Part shown: in pieces, positions 15,692-20,910 of the stretch
How positions within the stretch are numbered: the first letter of the stretch is position 1
Layout: the number at the start of each line of letters is the position of its first letter
DNA from: Escherichia coli
GTDB lineage: Bacteria; Pseudomonadota; Gammaproteobacteria; Enterobacterales; Enterobacteriaceae
Reading direction: 5' to 3' (one strand)
DNA: 34,162 bases
Assembly (NCBI RefSeq): GCF_003334315.1
Contig: NZ_QOWR01000050.1
Notes under the pieces: model-generated
The model's database searches: none
Told to the model about the DNA's origin: nothing
The model's input: the letters and a program-made list of their open reading frames with translations, nothing else
Position numbers and translations under genes: made by a program

Positions 15692-15703
15692 TCGGTGAAT
15701 GAA

Positions 15704-15732
15704 GGGCAACGGCGAATAGTTGCCCTTTTATT
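15704..15732 (+). terminator. Rho-independent terminator of paaZ
   Basis: GGGCAAC (15704-15710) / GTTGCCC (15719-15725) stem with an 8-nt loop, followed by TTTTATTT. Confidence 0.7.
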
Positions 15733-15808
15733 TCACCAAATTTTGTGACGTTGTCACGTTATGCATGATGTGTATCTGTATTTTCAGGGCACCCACTGTA
15801 TGAAAAGC

Positions 15809-15845
15809 TGGCACACCTGCCAAACAACTTGGCAGGTGCAGGCAA
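15809..15845 (+). promoter_or_regulatory. Candidate FeaR activator site in the tynA promoter (two TGNCA-N8-AAA-type direct repeats, 21 bp apart)
   Basis: TGGCA-cacctgcc-AAA at 15809-15824 and TGGCA-ggtgcagg-CAA at 15830-15845; the motif is the FeaR recognition pattern as I recall it from the literature. Confidence 0.5.
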
Positions 15846-15938
15846 TCCCCTTTACATCAGTGCTGATAATGTGAACCTGACTAAACCGCCCACAGAGCGC
15901 GGTTGCTAACAAGAACACAACATCTGACGAGGTTAATA

Positions 15939-18212
15939 ATGGGAAGCCCCTCTCTGTATTCTGCCCGTAAAACAACCCTGGCGTTGGCAGTCGCCTTAAG
16001 TTTCGCCTGGCAAGCGCCGGTATTTGCCCACGGTGGTGAAGCGCATATGGTGCCAATGGATAAAACGCTTAAAGAATTTGGTGCCGATGTGCAGTGGGAC
16101 GACTACGCCCAGCTCTTTACCCTGATTAAAGATGGCGCGTACGTGAAAGTGAAGCCTGGTGCGCAAACAGCAATTGTTAATGGTCAGCCTCTGGCACTGC
16201 AAGTACCGGTAGTGATGAAAGACAATAAAGCCTGGGTTTCTGACACCTTTATTAACGATGTTTTCCAGTCCGGGCTGGATCAAACCTTTCAGGTAGAAAA
16301 GCGCCCTCACCCACTTAATGCGCTAACTGCGGACGAAATTAAACAGGCCGTTGAAATTGTTAAAGCTTCCGCGGACTTCAAACCCAATACCCGTTTTACT
16401 GAGATCTCCCTGCTACCGCCAGATAAAGAAGCTGTCTGGGCGTTTGCGCTGGAAAACAAACCGGTTGACCAGCCGCGCAAAGCCGACGTCATTATGCTCG
16501 ACGGCAAACATATCATCGAAGCGGTGGTGGATCTGCAAAACAACAAACTGCTCTCCTGGCAACCCATTAAAGACGCCCACGGTATGGTGTTGCTGGATGA
16601 TTTCGCCAGTGTGCAGAACATTATTAACAACAGTGAAGAATTTGCCGCTGCCGTGAAGAAACGCGGTATTACTGATGCGAAAAAAGTGATTACCACGCCG
16701 CTGACCGTAGGTTATTTCGATGGTAAAGATGGCCTGAAACAAGATGCCCGGTTGCTCAAAGTCATCAGCTATCTTGATGTCGGTGATGGCAACTACTGGG
16801 CACATCCCATCGAAAACCTGGTGGCGGTCGTTGATTTAGAACAGAAAAAAATCGTTAAGATTGAAGAAGGTCCGGTAGTTCCGGTGCCAATGACCGCACG
16901 CCCATTTGATGGCCGTGACCGCGTTGCTCCGGCAGTTAAGCCTATGCAAATCATTGAGCCTGAAGGTAAAAATTACACCATTACTGGCGATATGATTCAC
17001 TGGCGGAACTGGGATTTTCACCTCAGCATGAACTCTCGCGTAGGGCCGATGATCTCCACCGTGACTTATAACGACAATGGCACCAAACGCAAAGTCATGT
17101 ACGAAGGTTCTCTCGGCGGCATGATTGTGCCTTACGGTGATCCTGATATTGGCTGGTACTTTAAAGCGTATCTGGACTCTGGTGACTACGGTATGGGCAC
17201 GCTAACCTCACCAATTGCTCGTGGTAAAGATGCCCCGTCTAACGCAGTGCTCCTTAATGAAACCATCGCCGACTACACTGGCGTGCCGATGGAGATCCCT
17301 CGCGCTATCGCGGTATTTGAACGTTATGCCGGGCCGGAGTATAAGCATCAGGAAATGGGCCAGCCCAACGTCAGTACCGAACGCCGGGAGTTAGTGGTGC
17401 GCTGGATCAGTACAGTGGGTAACTATGACTACATTTTTGACTGGATCTTCCATGAAAACGGCACTATTGGCATCGATGCCGGTGCTACGGGCATCGAAGC
17501 GGTGAAAGGTGTTAAAGCGAAAACCATGCACGATGAGACGGCGAAAGATGACACGCGCTACGGCACGCTTATCGATCACAATATCGTGGGTACTACACAC
17601 CAACATATTTATAATTTCCGCCTCGATCTGGATGTAGATGGCGAGAATAACAGCCTGGTGGCGATGGACCCAGTGGTAAAACCGAATACTGCCGGTGGCC
17701 CACGCACCAGTACCATGCAAGTTAATCAGTACAACATCGGCAATGAACAGGATGCCGCACAGAAATTTGATCCGGGCACGATTCGTCTGTTGAGTAACCC
17801 GAACAAAGAGAACCGCATGGGCAATCCGGTTTCCTATCAAATTATTCCTTATGCAGGTGGTACTCACCCGGTAGCAAAAGGTGCCCAGTTCGCGCCGGAC
17901 GAGTGGATCTATCATCGTTTAAGCTTTATGGACAAGCAGCTCTGGGTAACGCGTTATCATCCTGGCGAGCGTTTCCCGGAAGGCAAATATCCGAACCGTT
18001 CTACTCATGACACCGGTCTTGGACAATACAGTAAGGATAACGAGTCGCTGGACAACACCGACGCCGTTGTCTGGATGACCACCGGCACCACACATGTGGC
18101 CCGCGCCGAAGAGTGGCCGATTATGCCGACCGAATGGGTACATACTCTGCTGAAACCATGGAACTTCTTTGACGAAACGCCAACGCTAGGGGCGCTGAAG
18201 AAAGATAAGTGA
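15939..18212 (+). CDS. tynA: Periplasmic copper/topaquinone primary amine oxidase TynA, 757 aa
   Basis: Signal peptide MGSPSLYSARKTTLALAVALSFAWQAPVFA and the topaquinone precursor motif NYDY (…TVGNYDYIFDW…). Start trimmed from the track's 15903 to the ATG at 15939, which has a GAGG site. Confidence 0.9.
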   Translation: MGSPSLYSARKTTLALAVALSFAWQAPVFAHGGEAHMVPMDKTLKEFGADVQWDDYAQLFTLIKDGAYVKVKPGAQTAIVNGQPLALQVPVVMKDNKAWVSDTFINDVFQSGLDQTFQVEKRPHPLNALTADEIKQAVEIVKASADFKPNTRFTEISLLPPDKEAVWAFALENKPVDQPRKADVIMLDGKHIIEAVVDLQNNKLLSWQPIKDAHGMVLLDDFASVQNIINNSEEFAAAVKKRGITDAKKVITTPLTVGYFDGKDGLKQDARLLKVISYLDVGDGNYWAHPIENLVAVVDLEQKKIVKIEEGPVVPVPMTARPFDGRDRVAPAVKPMQIIEPEGKNYTITGDMIHWRNWDFHLSMNSRVGPMISTVTYNDNGTKRKVMYEGSLGGMIVPYGDPDIGWYFKAYLDSGDYGMGTLTSPIARGKDAPSNAVLLNETIADYTGVPMEIPRAIAVFERYAGPEYKHQEMGQPNVSTERRELVVRWISTVGNYDYIFDWIFHENGTIGIDAGATGIEAVKGVKAKTMHDETAKDDTRYGTLIDHNIVGTTHQHIYNFRLDLDVDGENNSLVAMDPVVKPNTAGGPRTSTMQVNQYNIGNEQDAAQKFDPGTIRLLSNPNKENRMGNPVSYQIIPYAGGTHPVAKGAQFAPDEWIYHRLSFMDKQLWVTRYHPGERFPEGKYPNRSTHDTGLGQYSKDNESLDNTDAVVWMTTGTTHVARAEEWPIMPTEWVHTLLKPWNFFDETPTLGALKKDK

Positions 18213-18269: not shown

Positions 18270-19769
18270 TTAATACCGTACACACACCGACTTAGTTTCA
18301 CACCAACCGTCCAGCCAGTCGGGGCCAAAATCACGGCCCGTTCCTGACTGCTTCATCCCACCAAACGGTAAGTTAGCGTCAATTAAGGTATGGCTGTTTA
18401 CCCACACCGTCCCTGCCTGTAAGCGATCGCTATATTCCAGAGCCTGGGAGAGATTTTGCGTCCAGACACTGGCAGTTAAGCCATATTCCGTGTCGTTTGC
18501 CAGTTGTAACGCCTCTTCTCCATCCGCTACTCGCACCAGGTTTACCACCGGACCAAACACCTCTTCACGAGTTAAGCGCAATTTAGCATCGGGATTTACC
18601 ACCAGCGTTGGCGCAACATAATACCCCTCTCCGGCTGGTCCATTCGACCCGCGAATCAGCTCTGCTTGCTGTGCCTGCGCATCGTCGAGGAATGAACACA
18701 CTTTGTCGCAGTGCGCACGAGAAACCAAAGGGTTAATCTGTGCAACAGGTGACATCCCCGGTCCCACTTGCAACGATTTTACCGCCTGCTCAAATCCACT
18801 AACCAGCGTGTCAAACAACGGCGCTTCAATATAAATTCGCGAACTGGCGGCGCATACTTGCCCTTGATTCAGGAAGCTTCCGGTCATCAAGCCTTCAATA
18901 ACCCATTGCGGATCAGCATCTTTTAATACAATTGCCGGGTTTTTACCGCCCAGTTCCAGCGTTACACGCGTTAAGTGATCAGCAGCAGTTCTGGCAATAC
19001 CTTTTCCCGTCGCGGTTGAACCGGTAAAACTGATTTTCGCAACATGAGGATGTGACGTCAGGGCCGCGCCGCATACAGCACCTGACCCGGTGACGACATT
19101 AAAAACGCCATCAGGGATACCAGCCTCGCTGGCCAGTTCCGCCACGCGCAACATCGTCAGTGGCGTGGTTTCCGAAGGCTTAATCACGATTGAACAGCCT
19201 GCTGCCAGTGCTGGCATCACCTTCCACATACCAATCATCAACGGAAAGTTCCATGGCACAATTCCCGCCACTACGCCAACCGGCTCTTTACGCGTCCAGG
19301 CCTGATAACGCGCCCCCTGGGGTAAGGGAATCGACAAGTCCAGCGTTTTACCCGCGATTTTGGTCGTTAACCCGGCGGTATAACGCATCCAGTTCAGCGT
19401 ACAGCCCACTTCAAAAGCACGGGAAATGGCAATTGACTTGCCTTGCTCCAGGGTTTCCAGTTGCGCCAGCTCCTCACTGTGCTGCTCCACCAGATCAGCA
19501 AAACGTAGCAGAATACGTTCACGCTCTGCGGGTAATCGCCCGGCCCAGCGACGCGAGACAAAGGCCCGCCAGGCAGACATGACTGCGTTATCTACATCCG
19601 CTTCGTTGGCATCAGCAGTAGACGCAATTTCTTGCCCGGTGGCCGGATCAAAGATCGCCAACCGTTTTTCACTTTGTGCGGGGCCAGGACGACCATCAAT
19701 ATAAAGACCGTGTTGACGATCGAGAAACTGTTGGACCTGGCTTAATACTGCTACATGCGGCTCTGTCAT
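18270..19769 (-). CDS. feaB: Phenylacetaldehyde dehydrogenase FeaB, 499 aa
   Basis: Aldehyde dehydrogenase motifs ELGGKNP and catalytic Cys GQVCAASS. Start is at the second of two adjacent Met codons (the track gives 500 aa from 19772). Confidence 0.9.
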
Positions 19770-19829
19770 CACTTTTCCTTATTATTTACCCAGTGTGATT
19801 TCAGTGTACGCAGCGACAAGAAAAGTCAC

Positions 19830-19866
19830 TTTTTTCGCTGTGACATTCGCTTTGTCAGCTGTGACA
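19830..19866 (-). promoter_or_regulatory. Candidate FeaR activator site in the feaB promoter (two TGNCA-N8-AAA direct repeats, 21 bp apart, read on the minus strand)
   Basis: Plus strand shows TTT-N8-TGACA at 19830-19845 and 19851-19866, i.e. TGTCA-N8-AAA twice on the feaB-coding strand. Confidence 0.5.
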
Positions 19867-20004
19867 AGCTCCGCAAATCGTGACAATAACCGCTTATGTC
19901 TCTATGCCTGACAAGACTTATTTCCTATAGTCAGGCTCATTAGCTTCGTTTATTGCAACACAAATGCAACAATAAAAATACATTTCACAGAGCGAAAACG
20001 TGCC

Positions 20005-20910
20005 ATGAACCCCGCAGTGGATAATGAGTTTCAGCAATGGCTTTCCCAAATCAATCAGGTATGCGGAAATTTTACCGGACGCCTGCTGACTGAGCGTTAC
20101 ACGGGTGTACTGGACACGCATTTTGCCAAAGGACTAAAGCTGAGTACCGTGACAACCAGCGGGGTGAATTTATCCCGCACCTGGCAGGAAGTAAAAGGCA
20201 GCGACGATGCCTGGTTTTACACCGTTTTTCAGCTTAGTGGTCAGGCAATAATGGAGCAGGATGAGCGTCAGGTGCAGATTGGCGCTGGCGATATTACGTT
20301 ACTCGATGCCTCACGCCCCTGTTCGCTTTACTGGCAGGAGTCTTCTAAACAGATTTCATTACTTTTGCCACGCACTCTGCTGGAACAATATTTTCCCCAT
20401 CAAAAACCTGTCTGCGCAGAAAGACTGGACGCTGACTTACCCATGGTGCAACTCAGTCATCGCCTGTTACAGGAGAGCATGAATAATCCGGCACTTTCTG
20501 AAACAGAAAGTGAAGCTGCGCTACAGGCGATGGTGTGTCTGCTGCGCCCGGTACTTCATCAGCGGGAATCTGTTCAACCTCGTCGTGAACGTCAGTTTCA
20601 AAAAGTGGTTACGTTGATAGACGATAATATTCGCGAAGAGATATTACGCCCGGAGTGGATAGCCGGAGAGACAGGTATGTCAGTACGTAGTTTGTACCGA
20701 ATGTTTGCCGATAAAGGTTTGGTAGTCGCGCAATATATTCGTAACCGTCGTCTCGATTTTTGTGCAGATGCGATTCGCCATGCCGCAGATGATGAAAAAC
20801 TGGCAGGCATCGGCTTTCATTGGGGATTTTCTGACCAGAGTCATTTTTCAACGGTATTTAAGCAACGCTTTGGGATGACGCCAGGCGAGTATCGACGTAA
20901 ATTCCGCTAA
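20005..20910 (+). CDS. feaR: AraC-family transcriptional activator FeaR, 301 aa
   Basis: 301-aa protein with a C-terminal AraC-type helix-turn-helix (…RSLYRMFADKGLVVAQYIRNRRLDFCADAI…FSDQSHFSTVFKQRFGMTPGEYRRKF); divergent from feaB. Confidence 0.9.
   Translation: MNPAVDNEFQQWLSQINQVCGNFTGRLLTERYTGVLDTHFAKGLKLSTVTTSGVNLSRTWQEVKGSDDAWFYTVFQLSGQAIMEQDERQVQIGAGDITLLDASRPCSLYWQESSKQISLLLPRTLLEQYFPHQKPVCAERLDADLPMVQLSHRLLQESMNNPALSETESEAALQAMVCLLRPVLHQRESVQPRRERQFQKVVTLIDDNIREEILRPEWIAGETGMSVRSLYRMFADKGLVVAQYIRNRRLDFCADAIRHAADDEKLAGIGFHWGFSDQSHFSTVFKQRFGMTPGEYRRKFR

Follow-up and report, generated by a model that had tools for sequence, protein, structure and literature searches.

The 37 bp at positions 15809–15845, upstream of the amine oxidase gene tynA, very probably serve as the FeaR operator of its promoter in E. 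coli, as judged from sequence comparison. The window, which is the whole stretch of 34,162 nt that we analyzed, is E. coli chromosome and carries the paaZ-tynA-feaB-feaR locus. We found two direct copies of the FeaR-type motif in a 21-bp register, located upstream of a FeaR-regulated gene and pointing toward it, with feaR itself present and the motif recurring in the other promoter of the regulon, that of feaB. The original prediction had read the two repeats as a FeaR site from the TGNCA-N8-AAA consensus, and this reading was supported by the feaR locus, the feaB pair, the conservation in 55 species, and a distance to the -10 element that both promoters share.

The two TGGCA repeats are real and can be read directly from the sequence as TGGCA-cacctgcc-AAA and TGGCA-ggtgcagg-CAA, with a start-to-start distance of 21 bp (15809 to 15830). 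Counted from the tynA ATG (15939–15941), the pair extends from -130 to -94, in agreement with the earlier placing, and the proximal copy ends in CAA and not AAA, as had also been stated, so that it matches six of the seven specified bases (Table 1). A lone copy of the motif is unremarkable: the window has 13 single TGNCA-N8-AAA matches, and 7.7 ± 2.9 would be expected from shuffled sequences. For pairs, we required at least 13 of the 14 specified bases of two TGNCA-N8-AAA copies at 21-bp spacing, and found exactly two on both strands of the window, one upstream of tynA and one upstream of feaB, each oriented toward its own gene. At spacings of 16–20 and 22–34 bp, no pair was detected on either strand of the whole window. 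The chance expectation was 0.033 pairs per window (mean of 300 first-order Markov simulations), and two pairs occurred in none of the 300 simulations. Since the tynA and feaB pairs are the only ones in the window, both known FeaR targets, and nothing else there, carry the element.

Table 1. Positions in the window of the FeaR repeats, predicted promoter elements and genes of the tynA-feaB-feaR locus
Feature	Position	Strand	Remarks
Distal FeaR repeat, tynA promoter, TGGCAcacctgccAAA	15809–15824	+	TGGCA (15809–15813), cacctgcc (15814–15821), AAA (15822–15824); 7/7 specified bases
Spacer CAACT between the tynA repeats, 5 bp	15825–15829	+	CAACC/TAACC in most genera
Proximal FeaR repeat, tynA promoter, TGGCAggtgcaggCAA	15830–15845	+	TGGCA (15830–15834), ggtgcagg (15835–15842), CAA (15843–15845); 6/7 specified bases
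FeaR pair of feaB: TGTCAcagctgacAAA (19866–19851), spacer gcgaa, TGTCAcagcgaaaAAA (19845–19830)	19830–19866	-	Both copies 7/7
Predicted extended -10, tynA: TG (15864–15865), TAATGT (15867–15872)	15864–15872	+	Conserved cTGnTAnnnT block in orthologues
Predicted -10, feaB: TACACT here, TAGACT in other genera	19803–19808	-	Columns almost invariant among 22 distinct sequences
paaZ intrinsic terminator, stem AAGGGCAAC/GTTGCCCTT and T-run	15702–15735	+	Upstream boundary of the tynA control region
tynA, periplasmic copper/topaquinone primary-amine oxidase, regulated gene	15939–18212	+	Annotation; NCBIfam NF011285, 1634 bits against a cut-off of 1278
feaB, phenylacetaldehyde dehydrogenase, second FeaR target	18270–19769	-	Annotation
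feaR, AraC-family activator presumed to bind the repeats	20005–20910	+	NF007243; Pfam AraC_binding_2 and HTH_18

The genes of the locus are ordered paaABCDE (-), paaZ (+), tynA (+), feaB (-), and feaR (+), and the paaZ-tynA intergenic region is present in 3167 of the 5426 complete genomes. The FeaR protein encoded in the window is intact and shows 100% identity to the annotated FeaR WP_001067519.1; it scored 504.9 bits against the NCBIfam FeaR equivalog model NF007243, for which the cut-off is 199. It contains an AraC_binding_2 domain (residues 12–185, E 5e-29) and an HTH_18 domain (residues 219–299, E 2.4e-19) and also matches HTH_AraC (E 9.4e-12), so that it has the AraC-type double helix-turn-helix. 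Activation of tynA and feaB by FeaR has been reported (PMC4640556; PMC4951805), and biosensors have been built in which the tynA promoter is driven by FeaR together with an aldehyde ligand (PMC11542736).

The feaB pair has the same 21-bp register as the tynA pair and is situated about 60 bp before the start of feaB. We scanned the window with a weight matrix made from the feaB sites of other genera, and found that the feaB site of the window ranked first and the tynA site second among about 68,000 positions; a matrix made from tynA sites gave the reverse result and recovered the feaB site, although this cross-test is only partly independent, namely at the unspecified positions, because the training sites had been picked by consensus. 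The two promoters also agree downstream of the repeats. When the tynA orthologue sequences were anchored on the repeats, the cTGnTAnnnT block was found at a fixed 21–22 nt from the proximal repeat, and in both E. coli promoters exactly 21 nt lie between the end of the proximal repeat and the -10 hexamer, the tynA hexamer being ambiguous by 1–2 nt in E. coli (TAATGT, or GATAAT at 15865–15870). No recognizable -35 element was found in either the tynA or the feaB promoter. If transcription begins about 7 nt past the -10 hexamers, the predicted starts would be near 15879 for tynA and near 19796 for feaB, and the repeats would then be centred near -41.5 and -62.5, which would correspond to the usual class II layout of AraC/XylS activators. 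A simple sigma-70 scan of the tynA upstream region gave no plus-strand promoter; this blank result is to be expected of an activator-dependent promoter, and for such promoters the scan is uninformative. The one match of the scan (minus strand, TTGGCA...TACAGT, 15823–15795) was regarded as chance, because it lies inside the repeats and faces the 3' end of paaZ.

To evaluate conservation, we scanned one genome per species with TynA and obtained 80 loci, of which the 58 from Enterobacteriaceae (566 kb in all, 57 with upstream DNA) were used for the counts. The results showed that the strict pair occurs upstream of tynA in 55 of the 57 loci, always with 21-bp spacing and always on the tynA strand, at distances from the start codon of about -103 to -401. 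The other two loci fell below the threshold and still retain TGGCA-21-TGGCA. The feaB-type pair was found in 21 loci, each time upstream of feaB, on the feaB strand and with 21-bp spacing, and a single stray pair (locus L029) was present outside the tynA and feaB promoters in the 566 kb. In the sequences anchored on the repeats, the most conserved columns were those of TGGCA, the AAA/CAA tails, part of the N8 and the spacer, and the downstream -10 block, and conservation fell away sharply upstream of the distal copy. Among the loci scanned, one labelled 'Chryseobacterium sp. 18061' (L014) has an enterobacterial tynA-feaB locus whose 37-bp FeaR pair is identical to that of 'Citrobacter sp. 18056' (L021), with only slight differences in the flanks; the assembly appears to be contaminated or mislabelled.

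The Pseudomonas loci (L057–L081) present a different picture. Their TynA homologues (about 71–74% identity) adjoin a FeaR-like gene (about 46% identity), and the strict pair is absent upstream of tynA in most of them, so that the conservation counts do not include these loci. In three of these loci (L062, L064, and L069), TGGCA-21-TGGCA pairs were observed upstream of the divergent feaB. In Pseudomonas, the site may have diverged, or regulation may be different.

Within E. coli, the 30-bp core with C at 15829 was found exactly in 3158 of the 3162 complete genomes that have the region, and in three other aligned strains all polymorphisms of the paaZ-tynA spacer are outside the 37 bp. Variation was seen on both sides of the pair. 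In the interval that separates the proximal repeat from the -10 element (15846–15866), A/G and G/A substitutions occur among E. coli strains, and in strain EH10-18-47 (L084) a 1-nt deletion in a CCCC run is present, with which the distance from the repeat to the -10 would become 20 and not 21. Upstream of the pair, the stretch at 15741–15772 contains a GTGAC-gtt-GTCAC palindrome, which can also be read as the tandem GTGACGTT/GTCACGTT and is followed by an ATGCAT-centred palindrome, and a lone minus-strand TGNCA-N8-AAA match is located at 15741–15756; E. coli strains differ from one another in this stretch, and it is not conserved in other genera.

The orthologue sequences showed that the two promoters differ consistently at certain positions of the motif. 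The N of TGNCA is G at tynA (51/55 distal and 55/55 proximal copies) and T at feaB (21/21 distal and 19/21 proximal copies). The distal tail at tynA is AAA in 55/55 and the proximal tail CAA in 43/55, whereas the proximal copy at feaB keeps AAA. The presence of the proximal CAA in 43 of 55 species indicates that it is a conserved feature and not decay or a defect, a point that the original prediction had missed. The fuller tynA consensus is cTGGCAnnnCTGaCAAA-yAAcc-TGGCAnnnGCAnnCAA. The 5-bp spacers are likewise promoter-specific and conserved, yAACC at tynA and GCGAA at feaB.

Position 15829, which lies within the spacer and adjoins the proximal TGGCA on its 5' side, is T in the window and C in 3158 complete E. 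coli genomes, and the 30-mer with T at this position had no match in the complete E. coli genomes. It is one of eight single-base differences from the closest genome, that of strain CFSAN061761, over about 31 kb. Directly before the proximal TG, 6 of the 55 tynA sites also have T, and every feaB site has T or A; the C-to-T change is therefore probably tolerated. According to the abstract of Zeng and Spiro, tynA alone is reportedly induced under nitrogen limitation. It is a possible but doubtful suggestion that the promoter-specific bases set different affinities for FeaR and underlie differential induction, and that the T at 15829 alters the inducibility of tynA in this strain.

An inverted repeat that the original prediction had missed, CACCTGCCAA (15814–15823) and TTGGCAGGTG (15829–15838), is located inside the FeaR pair. 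In an alternative reading, this 10-bp inverted repeat would be the functional unit, either binding a symmetric dimer as a palindromic operator or forming a hairpin or cruciform, and the direct repeat would be the by-product. Its arms are complementary at 10 of 10 positions across a 5-nt loop, the folding energy as single-stranded DNA is -13.5 kcal/mol (z-score -3.3), and within the distal copy the minus strand has a weak resemblance to a terminator. However, the palindrome is perfect in this window only, because the T at 15829 is private to it; with the usual C, as in the E. coli strain L001, 9 of 10 positions pair, and in other genera 2–7 of 10 do, with the retained pairs lying only within the conserved TG.CA/AA blocks. 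The feaB site shares the direct-repeat layout without having this palindrome, and no match was found in Rfam. The inverted repeat lies upstream of the predicted start and would thus be absent from tynA mRNA, which counts against a hairpin. We rejected the hairpin or palindrome reading, which we consider very improbable, because the arm complementarity is not kept in relatives; since complementarity is kept only in the conserved blocks, the inverted repeat is itself best explained as a by-product of the near-palindromic TGGCA/TGCCA words.

The same repeats could in principle belong to another kind of promoter or to another regulator. The sigma-54 consensus is TGGCACG-N4-TTGCW, and the TGGCA blocks resemble the TGGCAC of its -24 box, a reading made tempting by the response of tynA to nitrogen limitation. 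No match to this consensus with up to three mismatches was found in 15800–15860, the GC in the proximal copy is one base too near the GG, and the feaB copies, having TGTCA, are without the GG. No enhancer-binding protein is among the annotated genes of the window, and two copies in a 21-bp register are not a sigma-54 feature. The spacing, together with the feaB TGTCA, excludes a sigma-54 promoter, and we regard it as extremely improbable that the TGGCA blocks are -24 elements. A different or additional regulator, such as the NO-sensing repressor NsrR, might also bind the repeats; Rankin et al. 2008 reportedly found that NsrR binds the tynA and feaB regions. The title of that paper, as cited in PMC4640556, ties NsrR to this pathway, and repressor sites often overlap those of activators. 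Yet the repeats are unlike the NsrR consensus, and a search of the paaZ-tynA spacer for the NsrR-like half-site AANATGCATTT with up to two mismatches found none, the nearest one in the regulon being at 19975–19985, adjoining feaR; window-wide, such half-sites are fewer than expected by chance. We therefore consider a role of these repeats in binding NsrR or another regulator to be very unlikely. Chance similarity without function would fit the commonness of single TGNCA-N8-AAA matches, but it is opposed by the pair statistics, by the conservation in 55 species at an invariant spacing, and by the near-invariance in 3158 E. coli genomes, and its probability is negligible.

Two further features of the window were observed away from the tynA-feaR locus. 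A perfect match to the NsrR-type half-site AAGATGCATTT is located at 1106–1117 on the minus strand between pdxI and ydbD, with a plus-strand NsrR-type match of two mismatches 1 bp away from it. At the other end, in 32329–34162, the window diverges about 50 bp into ttcA from the genome closest to it and runs on into Rac-type prophage sequence (pinR, tfaR, ydfK) with an IS1-like element.

The FeaR operator proposed here suggests a mechanism in which FeaR binding, the transcription start and the polymerase contact are inferred, and the identity of the co-activator is taken from the literature. FeaR would consist of an N-terminal ligand and dimerization domain and a C-terminal double helix-turn-helix, and would become active when loaded with an aromatic aldehyde co-activator, the product of the TynA reaction. 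A FeaR dimer may bind both direct repeats, each about 16 bp long, on the same side of the helix, the repeats being two helical turns apart, and in each subunit the two helix-turn-helix units would read TGNCA and AAA/CAA, which are about one turn apart. The proximal repeat would abut or overlap the place of the missing -35 element, with the extended -10 lying 21 nt downstream, and from this arrangement bound FeaR would be expected to act as a class II activator that recruits sigma-70 RNA polymerase. The same arrangement may drive feaB.

To our knowledge, the tynA element is already known and does not differ in kind from the site in E. coli K-12. In their 2013 abstract (J Bacteriol 195:5141), Zeng and Spiro reportedly gave the FeaR site as TGNCA-N8-AAA, occurring twice in each of the promoters of tynA and feaB, and the co-activator is reported there to be the aldehyde that TynA produces. 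We take 15809–15845 to be the site that they defined experimentally. The locus, the regulator, the consensus and the two copies per promoter are the same as reported for the K-12 tynA and feaB FeaR sites, and the window differs from the 30-bp core shared in E. coli by one base, the T for C at 15829. In the papers other than that of Zeng and Spiro that our literature search covered, the site sequence (TGNCA) was quoted nowhere.

The AraC/XylS activators, such as AraC at I1-I2, XylS and RhaS, are dimers that bind direct repeats and contact RNA polymerase at -35. FeaR and its site share with AraC at araI1-I2, XylS, RhaS and MelR the C-terminal double helix-turn-helix and two direct repeats in a 21-bp register, as well as two conserved blocks per repeat about a helical turn apart, and from the predicted start the proximal repeat would likewise reach the -35 position of a promoter that has no good -35 element. 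In contrast, the recognition sequence of FeaR is different, and its effector is an aromatic aldehyde, the periplasmic product of the regulated enzyme itself; a looping or repression site is not evident at tynA. Residues 199–299 of FeaR are homologous to RamA, SoxS, Rob and MarA (E 1e-9 to 5e-6), whose structures have been solved, and the complexes of these proteins with the marbox (1BL0, 1D5Y, 7W5W, and 7BEF) offer a structural precedent for the reading of two neighbouring major grooves by a single subunit. These proteins act as monomers on a single asymmetric site, whereas FeaR has a dimerization and ligand domain and two tandem sites.

Apart from correct annotation, the result is of little importance. 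FeaR/tynA-promoter biosensors make use of this element for neuroactive amines (PMC11542736), and the fuller tynA consensus could help in the design of orthogonal or tuned sensor promoters. With the comparative data, the range of the site grows beyond E. coli to about 55 species of Enterobacteriaceae. In E. coli, the element is very probably the cis-switch for the catabolism of aromatic amines, namely phenylethylamine, tyramine, and dopamine.
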